Program-made: the position numbers and the translations under genes | In this document: positions 12,153 through 30,299 of the stretch, piece by piece | How positions within the stretch are numbered: the stretch's first letter is position 1 | Layout: every line of letters begins with the position of its first letter | The notes under the pieces: model-generated | What the model saw: only the letters and a program-made list of their open reading frames with translations | Told to the model about the DNA's origin: nothing | Database searches by the model: none | NCBI RefSeq assembly: GCF_000008625.1 | Contig: NC_000918.1 | Span: 1,080,001-1,112,000, forward strand | From: Aquifex aeolicus VF5 | Lineage (GTDB): Bacteria > Aquificota > Aquificia > Aquificales > Aquificaceae | Length of the DNA stretch: 32,000 nucleotides | Direction of reading: 5' to 3'

Positions 12153-12188
12153 AAGTTTTAATATTATTTGAACCTGGAAAGGGGAAAC

Positions 12189-12740
12189 ATGCTTGAACTC
12201 AGGAGAAAGCTCTTTCACTTTTTGTCTATACTCCTCCTTATTATTCCCGTAAAGTTCTTCCCTTTCTGGCTAAACGTTTTTCTATTTTTATCAGCCATAC
12301 TTTTAAACCTTCTGATAATTTTCAGAGTATCTCCCTTTTACAATATCTTTGAAGTTTTTATAAAACTTTTTGAAAGGGAGAAAAATCTGGAAACTCCAGG
12401 AATTCAGTCCCTGTGGGCAATTCTCGGAGTATTTATTTCTTACTTACTTTTTGGAGAAAATGCGGTTGTAGGAATTGTGGTTCTCGCCCTGGGAGACGGT
12501 TTTTCTGGACTTGTTGGATATTACTTTGGCAGAAGAAAGCTCTTTTACAACCCAAAAAAGAGTTTAGAGGGAACCTTAGCCTTTTTCACGGCGTCCTTTT
12601 TGGGACTTTTGCTTTTTACCGACTTTTGTGAAGCCTTTGTTATTTCTCTTATATGTGCAGTTCTTGAAAGTCTCCCTCTCAAACTCGACGACAACTTTTA
12701 CATTCCCGTCTTGGCGAGCTTTCTCGGAGAGGTGTTATGA
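12189..12740 (+). CDS. Small integral membrane protein of the CTP-dependent polyprenol kinase / CdsA superfamily (dolichol/phytol-kinase-like)
   Basis: N-terminal RRKLFH, five or six hydrophobic segments, and LALGDGFSGLVGYYFGRRKLFYNPKKSLEGTLAFF (a GD..A..VG..FG...KS.EG-type motif). ATG 12189 is preceded by GGAAAGGGGA. The track start at 12168 is a TTG. Confidence 0.6.
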   Translation: MLELRRKLFHFLSILLLIIPVKFFPFWLNVFLFLSAILLNLLIIFRVSPFYNIFEVFIKLFEREKNLETPGIQSLWAILGVFISYLLFGENAVVGIVVLALGDGFSGLVGYYFGRRKLFYNPKKSLEGTLAFFTASFLGLLLFTDFCEAFVISLICAVLESLPLKLDDNFYIPVLASFLGEVL

Positions 12741-13675
12741 AGAAGGCGTTAATAGTGAGGCTTTCCTCCTTAGGAGACGTAGTTTTAACGTCTGTGGTAT
12801 TTGACCCTTTGTTAAAGGCAGGTTATAAACCCTACCTTCTTACATTTAAGCCCTACGATGAAGTATTTCAGGATGACGACAGAGTAGAGGTAATACCCGT
12901 AAGTAAAGAAAACTTTTTTAAAGAAATTGAAAAAATCCCGAAGGACTTTGACCTGAAGGTGGATCTCCACGGAAACTTAAAGACCTTCTTCCTCAGACTC
13001 TTCCTCGGAGGAAAGTGGAGGAAGTATAAAAAAGAAAGCATAAGGAGGAGACTTTCCGTTTACTTTAAACACTTCAGAAAACCCTTTTTCGTCCCCGAGG
13101 CTTACGTGAAGAGCTTACAAGGGATAATTGAGGTAAAAAATCCGAGACCCTTTATAAAAGTTTCCGAAGAAAGGATAAGAGAATTTAAGGATTTATACGG
13201 AAAATACGTGGTTATAGCCCCGGGAGCGAGGTACAAAAAGAAACGTTATCCTTACTTCAAAGAACTTTCTGAACTCTTCATAAAAGAAGGGATAAACGTA
13301 GTTATAGTGGGAGACGAAAAGGATCGGGAAATCAGCAAGGATTTTCCGGGCGTAAACCTGTGCGGAAAGCTTTCTTTGATAGATGTTCTTGGAGTAATTG
13401 GAGGAGCGGAACTCTTTGTGGGAAACGACAGCGGACTCCTTCACTGTGCTAGGGCGGTAAAGACAAAGGCTATTCAGATTTACGGAGGGACTCACCCTAC
13501 TCTGGGCTTTTCCCTTTACCCCGATGAGGGGAAGGTTGTCTGCAAGTGTCTTGATTGCCAGCCGTGTGATGTGCACGGTAAAGGAGTGTGTAAAATAGGG
13601 AATTACGAATGTCTTAATATTCCTCCTATAAAAATTTTTGAGTATGCTATAAACATTTTGAATACCAAGCCGTAA
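12737..13675 (+). CDS. Glycosyltransferase family 9 (LPS heptosyltransferase-like)
   Basis: KALIVRLSSLGDVVLTSVV N-terminus, VVIAPGARYKKKRYP, LFVGNDSGLLHCARAV and a C-terminal Cys cluster. ATGA overlap with the upstream gene. Confidence 0.85.
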   Translation: MKKALIVRLSSLGDVVLTSVVFDPLLKAGYKPYLLTFKPYDEVFQDDDRVEVIPVSKENFFKEIEKIPKDFDLKVDLHGNLKTFFLRLFLGGKWRKYKKESIRRRLSVYFKHFRKPFFVPEAYVKSLQGIIEVKNPRPFIKVSEERIREFKDLYGKYVVIAPGARYKKKRYPYFKELSELFIKEGINVVIVGDEKDREISKDFPGVNLCGKLSLIDVLGVIGGAELFVGNDSGLLHCARAVKTKAIQIYGGTHPTLGFSLYPDEGKVVCKCLDCQPCDVHGKGVCKIGNYECLNIPPIKIFEYAINILNTKP

Positions 13676-13714
13676 AATTAGGAAGAAATTTATAAATAAA
13701 AGGAGGTGGGAGAC

Positions 13715-15139
13715 ATGGGAATTCTGGAAACACTTGTTTTAAAAGAAAAAATAAACGGAACGGAGAAGGCGGTAATCTTCAGGGAGCTCATAAAGAAAGA
13801 AATGGAGCTTTTAAACGATTACTGCGCTAAAAATCACCTGTTCCCCAAGGATTACAGGATTGAGTTCTGTCACCTGCACAACATAAAAAAGGTAAACATA
13901 GCGAGGCTCCTCACTATTTTAAAGTACTACGACCCGAGGTTTATAGAAATACTAATGTCAACGGACCCGAAAGTCAGAACCTTCATTCAGTACTTTATGG
14001 AATTCCTAGAAAAACACCCATACTTTGAGGATGTCCTTGAGCCCCAGAACCTCTTTGGAAACTGGGACTACATAAGGTATAAGTTAAAGATACTCTTCCC
14101 GCAACTTACCTTTGAGGAAATAGACAGGTTTAAGTTCAAAAGGAAAGAGTTTATAAACTACGTTAAGGAAAAACTGGGAGAACCTGAGGAATTAATAGAG
14201 GATAAACTGAACCTGGCAACCTGGTACGAAAGTGTACCTTACCTGGAGCTTGAAAGTGAAATGACTCCCGGTGTGCATCCCGACCCCGTAATGACTCCTG
14301 AGGAGTGGAGCTTTATCAAGAGACACATAAAGGGAAGGAAAAACATAATAATAAGGGACCCCGACACGGGCAAAGAAAAGCTCGTTTACGTAGAAGTGGA
14401 TATACCCGACGAAGAGCTAGACAAGTACTACAAAAACAGGGAAGGTTTGAAGAAACTTCTCATGGAAAGGTACAACATAGACGAGTCCGGAGCGGAGCAG
14501 ATACTAAGAAAAGCTGGTTGGGAAGCTACTGGATGGCACATAGTTCCACCCGTCCACACTGACGTTGAAGTAGTTTACCCAGAAGAAGAAAAGAAAGAAG
14601 AGAAAAAGGTTGAAGTAAAAAGAGAACCCTTTGACATAATGGAGCTTGCTAAACACATAAGGTACCTCGGCGGAAGGGAACTAGAAATGCTCAACTACTA
14701 CGAACTCGTTCACGACAAGGTTCCCGAAATTCACGAGAAACTCCACATGTTCATGAGGACAAAGAGAAGACTTCTCGGAAAGCTGTTCGGAATATACTAC
14801 ACGGTGGACCCCGTAATGGCGGAAGCCATACTCATAAACGACCCCGAAAACATAGAACTGCTAAAAAGCCTTACTATTTCAACCGGTCTCAGGGACAAGA
14901 AGTTCTCAATCTACGACAGCAGTAAGGTCTGGAACGAAATAAAGAGAAGGGTAAGATTCATATTCCCAGAGGTAAGCGAAGAAGAAATAGAGAAGTTCAA
15001 AGGAAAGAGAAGCGAGTTCGTGACTTACCTCGCCCAAAAACTCGGAAAACCCGAGGAGTACATAGACGAAAGACTCGAAAGAGCAGGTTGGCTAAGGAGT
15101 GAAGAAATTCCCGCCTTCATCAGACACGTGGGACCTTAA
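13715..15139 (+). CDS. Hypothetical protein with an internal duplication and three YjbJ/CsbD-like repeats
   Basis: AGGAGGTG lies 6 nt before ATG 13715 (the track start 13706 is a GTG inside the SD). Repeats are at nt 14063-14224, 14306-14521 and 14930-15091. See the findings. Confidence 0.7.
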
Positions 15140-16104
15140 GAGAGTTCAGCTTTTAGTATGTCGTGCATGTGCAATATGCCTATGGGCTCGTTCTCTTCGT
15201 TTACAACTATTAAAACGGTTATGTTGTGATCTTCCATCTTCCTCAGTGCTTTTAACGCCAGTTCATCCGGCTTTATCGTTTTTGGGTTTTTTGTCATAAC
15301 GTCTTTTGCCCTTGTGTTTTCAAAACTCCCTCCCCTGTTTACAAACCTTCTTAAATCCCCATCCGTTATTATCCCGACGAGTTTTCCCTCTTCATTCACA
15401 ACCGCAGTAGCTCCGAACCCTTTTGCTGTCATCTCTATTATCGCTTCCTTCATGGATGTGTCTTCCTTTACTATTGGAACCTCTTCACCTGTGTGATATA
15501 AATCCTTCACAAGTCTGAGCTTCCTTCCGAGAGCGCCCGCCGGGTGTCTCTTTGCAAAGTCCTCCTGAGAGAAACCCTTTAACTTCATAAGGGTCATCGC
15601 AATGGCGTCTCCGAGTGCAAGGGTGACAGTGGAACTCACAGTAGGTGCGAGGTTAAAAGGGCACGCTTCCCTGTCAACGGGAATTTTCAAAACTACGTCG
15701 CTGTATTTTGCCAGTGAAGATTTCTCATTTCCCGTGATACCGATAACCGGGATGTTTAACGCCTTTGCGTACTGGAGAACGTAAAGTACCTCTGTACTTT
15801 CCCCGCTGTTTGATATTGCTATAAGGGCGTCCTTTGAGTCTAGGAGTCCCATGTCGCCGTGGAGGGCTTCCGCGGGGTGGAGGAAAACAGAAGGTGTTCC
15901 CGTACTTGAAAGCGTAGAGGATATCTTTCTCGCTATATGACCGGACTTTCCTATTCCCGTAAGAATAACTTTACCTTCACAATTCCTTAAAATCTCTACA
16001 GCTTTTGAAAAATTTTCGTCAAGGGAAGAGAGGAGCCTTTCAAGTCCCTTTATCTCTTCCCTTATAACTTCCCTTGCAAACTCCAATAAGTCTTTTTCTT
16101 CCAT
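15136..16104 (-). CDS. kdsD: Arabinose-5-phosphate isomerase (KdsD/GutQ/KpsF: SIS domain + two CBS domains)
   Basis: [48 protein letters not shown], and a CBS pair at the C-terminus ([35 protein letters not shown]). Confidence 0.9.
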
Positions 16105-25817: not shown

Positions 25818-28800
25818 ATGTGGCAGGAATACGATAGCTGCGGTGTAGGGTTCGTTTGTGATATATACGGAAGGAAGAGCCACGATATCTTAAAAAAAGG
25901 TATCCAGGCGGTTAAGAACTTAACTCACAGGGGTGCTATCGGAGGGGATGGAAAAACCGGAGACGGAGCGGGAATACTCACTGAAATCCCGGTAAAGTTC
26001 TTTATGAAAGAGTTTAAAAAGCTAGGGTACGAAGTTTCTTCTCCCGAAAACCTCGCGGTGGGAATGTTCTTCTTATACGAGCCAGTTGAAGACAAGGTAG
26101 AGGAAGCCTTCATAAGTGAAGGAATAAAGGTAATAGGCTGGAGGGAAGTTCCCGTAAACACGGACGCGGTCGGAAAGGTAGCCCTCAAGGTAATGCCTCA
26201 AATCAAACAGCTATTTCTCGATATGAAGAACATCCCCGAAGAGGAAAGGGAATTAAGACTCTTCTTCGCAAGGAGGAAAATAGAGAAGAAGTACGAGGAT
26301 AAGGTATACATCCCCTCCCTTTCTACGAGAACTATCGTTTACAAGGGAATGCTCGTAGCTCCCCAGCTTGATAACTTTTACCAGGACCTCTTAGATGAAG
26401 ACTACGAGACTTCCTTTGTTCTCTTTCACCAGAGGTACTCAACAAACACCCTTCCCAACTGGAGACTTGCCCAGCCCCTGAGGTACCTCGCACACAACGG
26501 TGAAATAAACACTATACAGGGCAACAGGAACTGGATGCTCACACTCCAGCACGAGCTTGAACACGAAATTCTAAAGGGAAGAGAAGACTTAATAAAGCCT
26601 TTAGTTTCCCACGAAGAGAGCGACTCCGCCTCTTTAGATAGAGTTTTTGAACTCCTCTGCCTCGTGGGCTACAAACCCGAACATGCCATGTACATGCTAA
26701 TTCCCCCCGCGTGGGAGGCCATTCCCGACCTTCCAGAAGAGGTCAGGGCTTTCCTCGAGTACGAGTCCTTACTTATGAAGCCCTGGGACGGTCCCGCGGC
26801 GATAGCCTTCACGGACGGTAAAGTAATAGGTGCACACCTCGACAGGAACGGTCTCAGACCCGCAAGGTACGTGATAACTGAAGAGGGTTTTATGGTTCTC
26901 GGCTCAGAAGTTGGAATGGTGGACCTCGATGATCAAAGGGTAAAGGAAAAGGGAAGACTCGGCCCTGGAGACACTATTCTCATAGAACTCGGAAAGGGAG
27001 TAATTAAGAAATCCGAAGAGATATTAAAGGAACTCGCAAATTCAAAACCCTACAAGGAGTGGCTTGACAAACATCTCCTCAGATTATCCGAAATAGAAAA
27101 CGATTACAAACTTGAAAAGCCAAAAGAAGATCCTGACAGAATAAGAAAGCTCGTAGCCTTTGGCTGGAGCGAGGAGGAGATAAAGAACCCTATCAAATAC
27201 ATGGCTGAAACCGGAAATGAAATGACCTGGGCTATGGGTGACGACACGCCCCTGCCACCCCTCTCCGAAAAGCCCCAGCTCCTCTACAGGTACTTCAAAC
27301 AGAGGTTTGCACAGGTTACAAACCCCCCCATAGACCCCATAAGAGAAAGGGCGGTAATGTCCCTCCGTATGAACCTCGGCTACAAGAGGAACTTTCTCAA
27401 AGAAACGGAAGAGCACGCAAAGAGGCTTCAGATAGACTCTCCTATACTCCTTGACTACCAGTTAAAAGCAATAGAAAACCAGAAGGAGTTTAAAGTCGTA
27501 AGGATACCCATAGCCTACCCGAAAGAGAGGAGTTACAACATAGTTGAACTTCAGGACATGGCGGGAGAGAGGAGGATATCCGAACTCATAATGGACGCCC
27601 TCTACGAGGAAATTCCCATAAATGACATGAGACTCGGTATAGAAACGCTTCAAAGGAGGGTGGAAGAAGCAGTAAGGGAAGGGGCGGACATAATAATCCT
27701 CTCCGACAGGTATATAAGCAAGTACAGGGTTGCCATTCCCGCACTCCTTGCACTTTCTGCGTGTGTGAAGCACCTCGCAAAACAGGGACTCGCTCATAAG
27801 GTGTCCTTTATAGTTGAGACAGGTGAGGCAAGGGACAGCCACCAGATAGCCTGCCTTATAGGTTACGGAGCGAGTGCGGTTTATCCTTATCTTGCTTACG
27901 AGGTGATTTACGAACTCTGCGAAAAGGGAGAGATAGAACTTCCATATGAAGAAGCGGTATTCAAATACAAGGAAGCACTGGAAAAGGGACTTCTCAAGAT
28001 AATGTCCAAGATGGGAATATCCACCCTCAACTCTTATCAGGGTGCTCAAATATTTGACAGCGTATGCCTCAATAAGGACTTTGTTGAAGAGTTCTTCACC
28101 GGAACTCCTGTAACCTTGGAAGCGGACGGACTGGAGGAGATAGAAGCCTCAACCCTTGCAAGGCACAACGCGGCATACGAAGTGGAAGAGCCAAAGCTTG
28201 ACATCGGCGGACACATGAAGGCGAGAAAGGGCGGAGAGTTCCACGCCTGGTCCCCCGAAGTTGTTCGTGCCCTTCACAAGTTCCTGAAGACTAAGGACTA
28301 TAAGGATTACAAGGAATTTTCCAGACTCGCAAACTCTCAGCACCCCACCTTCATAAGACACCTCCTTACCTACAAGAAAGGAAATCCCATACCCATAGAG
28401 GAAGTTGAACCAGTTGAAAGTATCCTCAGGCGTTTCGTGACTGGCGGTATGTCCCTGGGAGCTCTCTCCCCCGAAGCCCACGAGACTATAGCGGAAGCCT
28501 GCAACAGGCTCGGAATGAAGTCAAATTCCGGAGAGGGAGGGGAGGACCCGGAAAGATACTGGACAATAAAGAATTCAGCAATAAAGCAAGTTGCGAGCGG
28601 AAGGTTCGGAGTAACACCAACCTACCTCGCTTCCGCAAAGGACCTTGAAATCAAGATAGCCCAAGGTGCAAAGCCCGGAGAAGGCGGACAGCTTCCGGGA
28701 CATAAGGTAAACGAGTACATAGCGAAACTCAGACACTCCCAGCCCGGAGTTACCCTGATATCACCACCACCTCACCACGACATATACTCCATAGAGGATT

Positions 28801-30299
28801 TAGCTCAGCTCATTCACGACCTCAAGCAGGCTAACCCCTTTGCTAGAGTGTGCGTGAAACTCGTTGCTGAAAGGGGGGTTGGAACGATAGCCGCGGGAGT
28901 TGCAAAGGCTTACGCGGACGTAGTTCAAATAAGCGGTGCGGAAGGCGGCACGGGAGCCTCTCCTTACTCGTCTATTAAGAACGCGGGTAATTACTGGGAA
29001 ATCGGACTAACTGAAACCCAGAGAGTTTTAATGGAAAACCACCTGAGGGACAAGATAAGGGTAAGGGTGGACGGCGGCTTCAGAACCGGAAAAGACGTCG
29101 TAATAGCAGCACTCATGGGAGCTGAGGAGTTTGGTTTTGGAACAGCGGCTATGATAGCGGAAGGTTGCGTAATGGCAAGGATTTGCCACACGAACAGGTG
29201 TCCCACCGGAGTGGCAACTCAGGACCCCAACTACAGGAAAAAGTTTAAGGGCAAAGTTGAAAACGTTATGGCTTACTTCAAAGCAGTGGCACAGGAAGTG
29301 AGAGAAATCCTAGCGGAAATGGGATACAGAAGCCTTGACGAAATAATCGGAAGAACGGACCTCCTTGAAGTAGTAAGGTATGACGAGTTCCCCGGTTCCA
29401 AGAGGATAAAAGTCGAAGCTCTCCTTGAAAAGTATCCCGAAAACGAACCCAGAAGGTGCATGGTGGAGAAAAACGACAATCCCGCTCCAAACTTCAACGA
29501 CAAGATACTTGAGGATCTTCTCCCTTACATAGAAGAAGGAATTCCCGTGGAAAAGGAGTACACCATAAGGAACGTGGACAGAACGATACCTACGAAGATA
29601 AACTACTTCATCTCCCTCTTCTACGGAGATAGGGGACTACCGGAGGACACTATAAAACTCACCTTCAGGGGAACCGCAGGACAGAGCTTCGGAGCCTTCA
29701 ACCACAGGGGTGTGAGCCTTACGCTTATCGGAGACGCAAACGACTACGTAGGAAAAGGAATGTACGGCGGGAGGATTGTGATAATTCCCGACGGCGTAAA
29801 AGAAACGGATAAAAACGTTATTATGGGCAATACATGCCTTTACGGAGCCACGGGAGGAGAACTATTCGCTGCAGGTGTTGCGGGTGAGAGGTTCGCGGTA
29901 AGAAATAGCGGTGCAACGGCGGTAATAGAGGGTGCGGGTCTTCACTGCTGTGAATACATGACGGGAGGTGTTGTAGTAGTTCTCGGAAAAGTGGGCTTTA
30001 ACCTCGGAGCGGGAATGACCGGCGGACACGCCTACGTCCTTGACGATGAACTCGATAAAAAGCTCAACTACGCCTATGTTTACGCAAGAAGATTGGTGGG
30101 AGAAGAAGAAATTAAGGAGCTCAGAGAGTTAATTGAAAAACACTACGAGTACACAAAGAGCCCGAAGGCTAAGGAAATTCTGGAAAACTGGGAAGAATAC
30201 GTGAAGAAGTTCTGGAAGGTCATTCCCTTGGAGCAGTGTTCCAGAGACCCCTACGGTGATTCCGACGCTTGCGAAGTAGAGTTCCTCGGAAGGAAATAA
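25818..30299 (+). CDS. gltB: Glutamate synthase large subunit (GltB; Ntn amidotransferase + FMN/3Fe-4S + GXGXG domains)
   Basis: The N-terminus MWQEYDS-CGVGF carries the catalytic Cys codon at 25839-25841. Also LFHQRYSTNT, HNGEINT, ISPPPHHDIYSIEDLAQLI, GAEGGTGASP, CHTNRCPTGVATQDP and the C-terminal GXGXG repeats. 1493 aa. Confidence 0.97.
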   Translation: MWQEYDSCGVGFVCDIYGRKSHDILKKGIQAVKNLTHRGAIGGDGKTGDGAGILTEIPVKFFMKEFKKLGYEVSSPENLAVGMFFLYEPVEDKVEEAFISEGIKVIGWREVPVNTDAVGKVALKVMPQIKQLFLDMKNIPEEERELRLFFARRKIEKKYEDKVYIPSLSTRTIVYKGMLVAPQLDNFYQDLLDEDYETSFVLFHQRYSTNTLPNWRLAQPLRYLAHNGEINTIQGNRNWMLTLQHELEHEILKGREDLIKPLVSHEESDSASLDRVFELLCLVGYKPEHAMYMLIPPAWEAIPDLPEEVRAFLEYESLLMKPWDGPAAIAFTDGKVIGAHLDRNGLRPARYVITEEGFMVLGSEVGMVDLDDQRVKEKGRLGPGDTILIELGKGVIKKSEEILKELANSKPYKEWLDKHLLRLSEIENDYKLEKPKEDPDRIRKLVAFGWSEEEIKNPIKYMAETGNEMTWAMGDDTPLPPLSEKPQLLYRYFKQRFAQVTNPPIDPIRERAVMSLRMNLGYKRNFLKETEEHAKRLQIDSPILLDYQLKAIENQKEFKVVRIPIAYPKERSYNIVELQDMAGERRISELIMDALYEEIPINDMRLGIETLQRRVEEAVREGADIIILSDRYISKYRVAIPALLALSACVKHLAKQGLAHKVSFIVETGEARDSHQIACLIGYGASAVYPYLAYEVIYELCEKGEIELPYEEAVFKYKEALEKGLLKIMSKMGISTLNSYQGAQIFDSVCLNKDFVEEFFTGTPVTLEADGLEEIEASTLARHNAAYEVEEPKLDIGGHMKARKGGEFHAWSPEVVRALHKFLKTKDYKDYKEFSRLANSQHPTFIRHLLTYKKGNPIPIEEVEPVESILRRFVTGGMSLGALSPEAHETIAEACNRLGMKSNSGEGGEDPERYWTIKNSAIKQVASGRFGVTPTYLASAKDLEIKIAQGAKPGEGGQLPGHKVNEYIAKLRHSQPGVTLISPPPHHDIYSIEDLAQLIHDLKQANPFARVCVKLVAERGVGTIAAGVAKAYADVVQISGAEGGTGASPYSSIKNAGNYWEIGLTETQRVLMENHLRDKIRVRVDGGFRTGKDVVIAALMGAEEFGFGTAAMIAEGCVMARICHTNRCPTGVATQDPNYRKKFKGKVENVMAYFKAVAQEVREILAEMGYRSLDEIIGRTDLLEVVRYDEFPGSKRIKVEALLEKYPENEPRRCMVEKNDNPAPNFNDKILEDLLPYIEEGIPVEKEYTIRNVDRTIPTKINYFISLFYGDRGLPEDTIKLTFRGTAGQSFGAFNHRGVSLTLIGDANDYVGKGMYGGRIVIIPDGVKETDKNVIMGNTCLYGATGGELFAAGVAGERFAVRNSGATAVIEGAGLHCCEYMTGGVVVVLGKVGFNLGAGMTGGHAYVLDDELDKKLNYAYVYARRLVGEEEIKELRELIEKHYEYTKSPKAKEILENWEEYVKKFWKVIPLEQCSRDPYGDSDACEVEFLGRK

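Follow-up and report, generated by a model that had tools for sequence, protein, structure and literature searches.

CsbD/YjbJ proteins are general-stress proteins of wide distribution; Escherichia coli YjbJ is highly abundant in stationary phase. The YjbJ-type CsbD domain (PF05532/UPF0337), represented by the structures of YjbJ (1RYK) and of Pseudomonas aeruginosa PA4738 (1YWW), is a four-helix unit of approximately 55 residues bracketed by Trp. It typically makes up a single-domain protein of 60-70 amino acids (aa) induced by general stress as part of the sigma-B or sigma-S regulon, although the view of a preliminary description of the DNA studied here, that CsbD proteins are normally single-domain, holds only as a generalisation; two- and three-repeat forms as well as fused forms occur elsewhere, with three repeats in P0224 and two in P0222, P0227 and P0229. 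Our literature searches for a mechanistic function of CsbD or E. coli YjbJ found none, and returned stress induction and phenotypes only, such as resistance to bile salts in group B Streptococcus (PMC10294668). In this study, we analyzed a window of 32,000 nucleotides (nt) of Aquifex aeolicus VF5 (NC_000918.1, positions 1,080,001 to 1,112,000 of the forward strand); "the window" means this whole stretch, and coordinates count from its first letter. Within it, the gene aq_1545 encodes a 474-aa protein, the founding member of what is quite likely a modular, soluble Aquificaceae family with three divergent CsbD-like domains (R1, R2, and R3) and an orphan helical module present twice (A1 and A3). 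The modules stand in the order A1-R1-L1-R2-L2-A3-R3-tail, L1 and L2 being linkers. The architecture proposed in the preliminary description, [A-YjbJ]-[YjbJ]-EK linker-[A-YjbJ], is thus supported by repeat, profile, and domain tests, and its positions for the three repeats were reproduced exactly. The gene and its CsbD-like units are the following:

13715-15139, + strand: aq_1545 coding sequence, 474 aa plus TAA stop (open reading frame listing, homologs)
14063-14224, + strand: R1, divergent YjbJ-type CsbD-like four-helix domain, aa 117-170 (shuffle test, hhalign, hidden Markov model)
14306-14521, + strand: R2, CsbD-like repeat with helix 1 split from helices 2-4 by a beta-hairpin, aa 198-269 (hhalign, AlphaFold2)
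14333-14398, + strand: beta-hairpin insertion inside R2, aa 207-228 (AlphaFold2 strands, conservation)
14930-15091, + strand: R3, of the three CsbD-like domains the one closest to YjbJ, aa 406-459 (profile searches, AlphaFold2)

The main alternative to homology is that the R units are an analogous four-helix motif, resembling YjbJ through convergence and the Lys/Glu-rich composition of their helices, which we consider improbable. The test that we regard as decisive for the CsbD link used hmmsearch to compare the full-length profile of the family exhaustively with a set of 1.84 billion representative proteins. It returned 22 matches, made up of family members or their fragments and eight outsiders; nothing else outside the family matched. 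The outsiders have E-values from 2.4e-10 to 5.2e-4 (including 5.2e-9 and 1.7e-6), and their matches are confined to the R1 and R3 profile positions, the best-matched region being R3 (profile positions 397-461). All eight are CsbD proteins according to Pfam (PF05532, E 1e-7 to 2e-23), with six exceeding the gathering score of 40 bits, and the Pfam match lies mostly on the same residues as the family-profile match. This result speaks against convergence, and so do the far lower scores of sequences shuffled with their composition preserved, of reversed sequences, and of profiles with shuffled columns. A hidden Markov model (HMM) of R1+R3 gave 121 YjbJ orthologs a median of 20.2 and a maximum of 27.8 bits, against maxima of 14.4 bits for 20,570 shuffled decoys and 1.6 bits for reversed sequences, and with an HMM of R1 alone their best score was 18.3 bits, the highest decoy reaching 11.9. 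In hhalign, R1+R3 matched a YjbJ alignment with a probability of 85.4% (E 5.9e-6, 53 columns without gaps), compared to 1.2% for the reversed control and at most 2.0% for 30 column-shuffled ones; the probability is moderate because the template alignment is enterobacterial only. Reciprocally, a YjbJ-only HMM scored the family weakly, with a median of 6.7 bits, which would favor convergence, and a maximum of 13.7 bits (4,100 decoys gave 5.8 bits or less), and its matches above 5 bits fell on R1 in 28 homologs and on R3 in 12, in register and nowhere else. Moreover, when the family profile was searched against 177,635 PDB sequences, YjbJ (1RYK) came first with E 0.042 and all others had E>1; profile positions 404-458 pair with YjbJ residues 9-61, Trp-to-Trp in register.

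The residue-level comparison agrees with these searches. The preliminary description had aligned R3 nearly without gaps to a YjbJ sequence; that sequence proved exact, being identical to PDB 1RYK chain A, and the alignment is gapless over 39-53 columns, BLASTP of R3 against YjbJ yielding a 39-residue match without gaps. R1, R3, and 15 CsbD repeats align gaplessly over about 55 columns, in which Trp8 and Arg34 are conserved in at least 90%. YjbJ and the R units share W..(K/R)...[WFY][GP].(L/V)(T/S).(D/E)(D/E), G-(K/R)-R, the central Gly, and the C-terminal W. The signature residues of the YjbJ subtype appear as W, SEEE, GKR, G, W in R3 and as W, TFEE, FKR, G, W in R1, so that the Trp, acidic, GKR, and Gly landmarks reported for R3 do stand in register with YjbJ, while R1 has FKR in place of GKR. 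Where YjbJ has the Gly of 'WGKLT', the R units have an invariant Pro ('FPEV/FPEL'). R2 retains the Arg and the acidic run as well as the GW at the C-terminal end, and its helix 1 is displaced by the hairpin. A full-length, gapless, Trp-to-Trp match that shares (T/S)x(D/E)(D/E) and G-K/R-R is a further argument against convergence. Taken at the level of sequence, the evidence supports R1 and R3 as probable divergent homologs of the YjbJ-type CsbD domain, and R2 as a putative further-diverged CsbD-like copy that is tied to the domain through R3.

The predicted structures are compatible with this assignment. The full-length AlphaFold2 (AF2) model, built from a 41-sequence alignment, has a mean predicted local distance difference test score (pLDDT) of 76 and a predicted template modeling score (pTM) of 0.49; the modules have pLDDT 80-93, the linkers are disordered, and each R unit consists of four short helices. 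A Foldseek search of the whole-chain model against the PDB gave nothing at E<=0.001, the top matches being generic long-helix proteins, as would be expected from a multi-domain model with that pTM. We also modeled R3 alone from a multiple sequence alignment free of CsbD sequences, which makes the fold test more independent. This model has four helices (pLDDT 88.8, pTM 0.74) and superposes on 1RYK with a root-mean-square deviation (rmsd) of 2.2 Å over 52 columns and template modeling (TM) scores of 0.56/0.57, values that for a small helical domain are not discriminating. Among 350,542 chains 1RYK ranked seventh, with the lowest rmsd in the list. The structure prediction suggested in the preliminary description has returned a four-helix R3 that is consistent with the YjbJ fold, and a Foldseek E-value that is not significant.

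Several points weigh against our interpretation, and some of them are what convergence would predict. The PF05532 HMM gave no match at E<=10 on aq_1545 or on isolated R1, R2, or R3, and none at E<=1 in 41 homologs. At the Pfam gathering score, aq_1545 thus does not qualify as a CsbD member, and the profile match anticipated in the preliminary description was absent from the protein, its repeats, and its homologs. Since the PF05532 HMM misses them, the R units are better called divergent relatives than members in the sense of Pfam; of the YjbJ/CsbD-like identity first proposed, the significant links to Pfam-validated CsbD proteins stand and the Pfam threshold is not reached. Pfam and NCBIfam scans of the whole protein, its isolated modules, and the 41 homologs assigned no family, and phmmer with the single aq_1545 sequence found nothing among PDB sequences. 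The identity of the R units to YjbJ is 15-23%, and taken singly they match YjbJ in hhalign at 50% (R1), 34% (R3), and 5.7% (R2); R2, which scores 6.5 bits with the HMM, has no direct CsbD similarity and is linked through R3 only. No Foldseek E-value for R3 is significant (1RYK, E 4.3), similar scores being obtained for HAD cap domains and for AGOG; the cap domains 2go7 and 2mu2 are equally good (TM 0.57-0.59, all E>=1). The homology between A1 and A3 is weak when they are compared alone (hhalign 28%, E 6e-4, 83 collinear columns). Neither a conserved neighbor or operon across five genera nor, in literature searches, expression data for aq_1545 were found. Lastly, the functional part of the interpretation is drawn by analogy with the CsbD family.

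The repeats themselves are well founded. Pairs were compared by Smith-Waterman scores against 1000 shuffles, and R1/R3 scored 151 versus 26.8±5.3 for shuffled sequences (z=23.6; 0/1000 as high). For R2/R3 z was 7.4, again with 0/1000 shuffles as high, so the repeat similarity does exceed that of shuffled sequence; R1/R2 is weak by itself (z=2.4; 26/1000), and the N-half and C-half of the protein give z=21.6. Self-BLASTP of aq_1545 reported the identity match alone. In the profile-profile comparison by hhalign, with columns from 41 homologs, R1-R3 reached 99% (E 6e-18), R2-R3 96.9% (E 1.4e-10, pairing aa 219-269 with aa 410-459), and R2-R1 77.5%, and the two halves aligned at 98.9% over 156 collinear columns. 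At the DNA level, R1 and R3 are approximately 60% identical and a repeat search found short chance matches only and no long repeats. Even the homolog that has diverged most, at 44% identity to the query, has all three repeats. These three facts together indicate that the duplication is ancient and no artefact. It may be that duplication of an ancestral A-R unit, together with the gain of a further R, preceded the radiation of the Aquificaceae.

With regard to R2, the preliminary description of a copy with an insertion is borne out by its match to R3 and by the beta-hairpin inserted in the AF2 model. The predicted elements are helices 195-205, 232-238, 242-253, and 257-266 and strands 207-214 and 221-228, the strands having pLDDT 71-82. 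Residues G207, R208, K209, N210, and Y225 of the hairpin are invariant in the 41 homologs, GRKN forming its start. Two other readings attach to R2. The first, which we hold to be highly improbable, is that the protein is an antiterminator-like RNA-binding regulator in which R2 serves as an ANTAR-like element that binds RNA. This is prompted by a sub-threshold Pfam match of aa 246-267 (14450-14515; E 0.0077 on isolated R2) that recurs in 27 of the 41 homologs with a best E of 0.0026. However, these homologs are one lineage, so the recurrence carries no independent weight; the match scores 13-16.4 bits against a gathering score of 27.3 bits, and the local helix-loop-helix likeness to ANTAR (PF03861) covers profile positions 17-38 only, or 22 of 54. 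The same residues align as helices 3-4 of the CsbD-like repeat in the R2-R3 comparison, and a response-regulator or sensor domain, a conserved adjacent leader or terminator, and a nearby Rfam element are all absent. The resemblance is probably a generic helix-loop-helix likeness. The second, which strikes us as scarcely credible, takes the GRKN hairpin as a nucleotide or cofactor site locally resembling dihydrofolate reductase (DHFR), on the grounds that family profile positions 190-220 (nt 14282-14374) align with residues 40-70 of E. coli DHFR and that the GRKN residues are invariant. That alignment is at chance level (E 1.8, 10 bits, in the 'GRKNII' segment), its matches all come from one DHFR sequence cluster, and it covers 31 of 159 residues of a Rossmann-like fold with no other DHFR element. 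PIN_4 and similar sub-threshold Pfam matches, seen with the protein, its modules, and the 41 homologs, were dismissed as noise.

Beside the CsbD-like units, the protein contains the following segments:

13754-14053, + strand: A1 module, a four-helix orphan, aa ~14-113 (AF2, conservation)
14225-14305, + strand: linker L1, aa 171-197, acidic and predicted disordered, with a motif ending HP.P.MT
14522-14563, + strand: post-R2 motif, aa 270-283, family consensus ESETYHIIPPIHTD
14564-14632, + strand: L2, a variable Glu/Lys-rich linker, aa 284-306 (conservation, pLDDT)
14633-14899, + strand: A3 module, second copy of the four-helix orphan module, aa 307-395 (AF2, collinear with A1)
15092-15136, + strand: C-terminal tail, aa 460-474, consensus LKxEEIPxFLRQIGP

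Each copy of the A module is composed, in the AF2 model, of two long helices, a short one, and one of medium length: 15-37, 45-72, 74-83, and 85-100 in A1 (pLDDT 79-93), and 308-333, 337-364, 366-374, and 377-390 in A3 (pLDDT 77-93). The conserved motifs of A1 include YDPxF..L..TDPRVR. It had been proposed that R1 and R3 are each preceded by a related helical module, and the collinearity of A1 and A3 agrees with this; the strength of their similarity is weak, the Smith-Waterman comparison (z=3.8; 6/1000 shuffles) adding to the low hhalign probability given above, which rises to 98.9% when A and R are compared together. The profile search of 1.84 billion proteins, Pfam, and PDB sequences revealed no relatives of the A module outside the family. 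That A might be a degenerate R or CsbD unit was excluded, hhalign giving less than 1%.

The segments that connect the modules are mostly not variable. L1 has pLDDT <50 at aa 174-191, and its mean column identity of 0.81 is on par with that of the domains; Y171, E172, P175, and Y176 are invariant in the 41 homologs. The post-R2 motif likewise combines low pLDDT with domain-like conservation, H281 and D283 being invariant and H275, I276, P278, P279, and T282 at least 90% conserved. The tail has a mean column identity of 0.82 with P466, G473, and P474 invariant. The least conserved segment is L2 (mean identity 0.59), and the other linkers and the tail are not variable; AF2 disorder extends over aa 273-302 (pLDDT <50), and aa 388-395 form a similarly disordered linker. 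After each repeat there is a conserved Pro/aromatic linear motif, W-x-E-x2-3-[VI]-P, and the strong conservation of these peptides suggests that they are functional docking elements. A separate predicted protein of 98 aa (P0220) joins the C-terminal part of R2 and the motif that follows it to an unrelated N-terminus containing IPIIQGGMGVGIS; this metagenomic gene call is probably chimeric or frameshifted.

The product of 13715-15139 matches the A. aeolicus hypothetical protein aq_1545 (P0001; 474 aa) at 100% identity, and has a computed mass of 56.9 kDa and pI of 5.9. The open reading frames (ORFs) of the window include a single long one here on the + strand, running from GTG at 13706 through 15139 (477 aa). 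Ahead of the ATG lies the following signal:

13701-13708, + strand: Shine-Dalgarno sequence AGGAGGTG, read from the sequence, spaced 6 nt from the ATG at 13715

The alternative GTG lies inside this AGGAGGTG, and the first Met of aq_1545 is the same start Met in homologs; therefore, the ATG at 13715 and the length of 474 aa are correct, as the preliminary description had it and in agreement with the length of the NCBI protein. The maximum Kyte-Doolittle average over a 19-residue window is 1.16 and no transmembrane segment is predicted, so that a soluble cytoplasmic protein is predicted from the sequence. The chance that this ORF is spurious, or that its repeats are an artefact of assembly or annotation, is practically negligible: it is annotated as hypothetical only and has no Pfam or NCBIfam family, but full-length orthologs with 43-97% identity and about 80 invariant residues come from dozens of independent genomes and metagenome-assembled genomes (MAGs), the Shine-Dalgarno sequence ahead of the ATG is strong, the AF2 domain models are confident, and repeats that differ that much in DNA are neither a recent nor an assembly duplication. 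No RNA element turned up in the window, and so none near aq_1545, with either Rfam or tRNA scans, a promoter-like site at 13650-13678 upstream of it is no better than chance expectation, and literature searches found no paper mentioning the gene. At its 3' end, aq_1545 overlaps by 4 nt (15136-15139) the convergent SIS+CBS KpsF/GutQ-like gene on the minus strand (15136-16104); there is no spacer between the two because both TAA stops use the palindrome TTAA. A minus-strand terminator-like hairpin (15055-15041) lies within the 3' end of aq_1545.

The aq_1545 family is confined to the Aquificaceae, and the architecture was found only there when its distribution was checked as the preliminary description had proposed. 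We found 89 homologs with 43-97% identity over the full length, and all those with names or titles are Aquificaceae. The 47 species-level genome loci belong to Aquificaceae or Aquificota except for one 'Acidobacteria' MAG contig. This contig of 12 kb (locus L025; RFFP01000029.1, 'Acidobacteria bacterium isolate J001') carries a full-length member with 58% identity and is most likely mis-binned Aquificaceae. Full-length relatives among the 1.84 billion proteins form only two clusters at 50% identity. The members, which are single-copy and about 470 aa long, come from Aquifex, Hydrogenivirga, Hydrogenobacter, Thermocrinis, Ca. Pampinifervens, and MAGs, and about 80 residues are invariant across the orthologs. 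The neighboring genes differ from genus to genus:

Aquifex locus: upstream, GT9 heptosyltransferase; downstream, convergent SIS+CBS (KpsF-like) gene
Hydrogenivirga locus: upstream, GT9; downstream, MTHFR
Hydrogenobacter locus: upstream, DnaB; downstream, MTHFR
T. albus locus: upstream, homoserine dehydrogenase; downstream, Lon
Locus of the most divergent member: upstream, a hypothetical gene; downstream, GGDEF

GT9 upstream is restricted to Aquifex and Hydrogenivirga, and MTHFR downstream to Hydrogenivirga and Hydrogenobacter. A lipopolysaccharide link, considered because GT9, KpsF, and LptD genes are nearby, was rejected since the neighborhood is not conserved. In the A. aeolicus window, the GT9 heptosyltransferase ORF (12737-13675) begins 4 nt before the end of a 190-aa hydrophobic ORF (12168-12740), for which no Pfam family was found at E<=1e-5; the 4-nt overlap at 12737-12740 suggests translational coupling. 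Farther along, the window holds a very long ORF of 1493 aa on the + strand (25818-30299).

Compared to YjbJ, aq_1545 carries three copies of the domain in 474 aa and so lies outside the 60-70 aa size of CsbD proteins; one copy is interrupted by a hairpin, the domains are fused to two orphan helical modules, and the family occurs only in hyperthermophilic Aquificaceae and lies below PF05532 detection. The multi-repeat CsbD proteins, which are the nearest out-of-family relatives of R1 and R3 (E 2.4e-10 to 5e-4), consist of tandem YjbJ-type repeats joined by low-complexity linkers. Unlike aq_1545, they reach the Pfam CsbD threshold or come close to it, and some have a probable membrane or Gly-zipper segment of a kind that aq_1545 is without. 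They have neither an A module nor an R2 with a hairpin, nor the motifs that the aq_1545 family conserves in its linkers and tail. P0219, P0221, P0222, and P0228 form an architecture of their own, with a YflT-like stress-protein region at the N-terminus (sub-threshold in Pfam), a long Gly/Ala-rich hydrophobic segment, and two YjbJ-type CsbD repeats, which finish with 'Y(S/T/V)F'. The architecture of aq_1545 is thus unusual and not unprecedented. New here are a divergence so great that Pfam does not detect the domain, with a Pro invariant in place of the signature Gly, the repeat copy that a hairpin interrupts, the fusion to an orphan module that is itself duplicated, and the strict Aquificaceae range.

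As to function, aq_1545 is not recognizable as any kind of enzyme or transporter. Tentatively, and by analogy with CsbD, it could be a multivalent CsbD-type binding or stabilizing protein. The three tethered CsbD-like modules and the Pro/aromatic motifs that follow the repeats would then engage a common cellular partner, and the protein might, by analogy with the stress-induced CsbD/YjbJ proteins, aid stress tolerance or homeostasis in these hyperthermophiles. We think it rather unlikely that the family is a lineage-specific adaptor or scaffold, in which the CsbD-like units would be tethered binders, the A module would supply a second activity, and the Pro/aromatic peptides, EEIPxFLRQIGP included, would serve in docking, either as intramolecular ligands of the CsbD-like domains or as partner-binding peptides. 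The architecture alone points to no function, because neither CsbD nor A has a known activity and the genomic context is uninformative. The preliminary description had hoped that the fused module would give a handle on what CsbD binds; this does not come from the sequence alone, as the A module has no known relatives. The value of the finding is further limited in that the neighborhood is not conserved and other lineages already have CsbD proteins with several repeats.

Nevertheless, the CsbD-like reading provides a domain assignment for an Aquificaceae hypothetical family that current Pfam and NCBIfam models miss. It would also mean that the CsbD domain extends beyond its Pfam model, accepting a Pro in place of the signature Gly and tolerating a hairpin insertion. 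As a thermostable, multi-domain, and well-modeling representative, aq_1545 could serve in pull-downs and structural work, and if the adaptor reading were true, it would offer the first view of the type of ligand that the CsbD/YjbJ domain recognizes.

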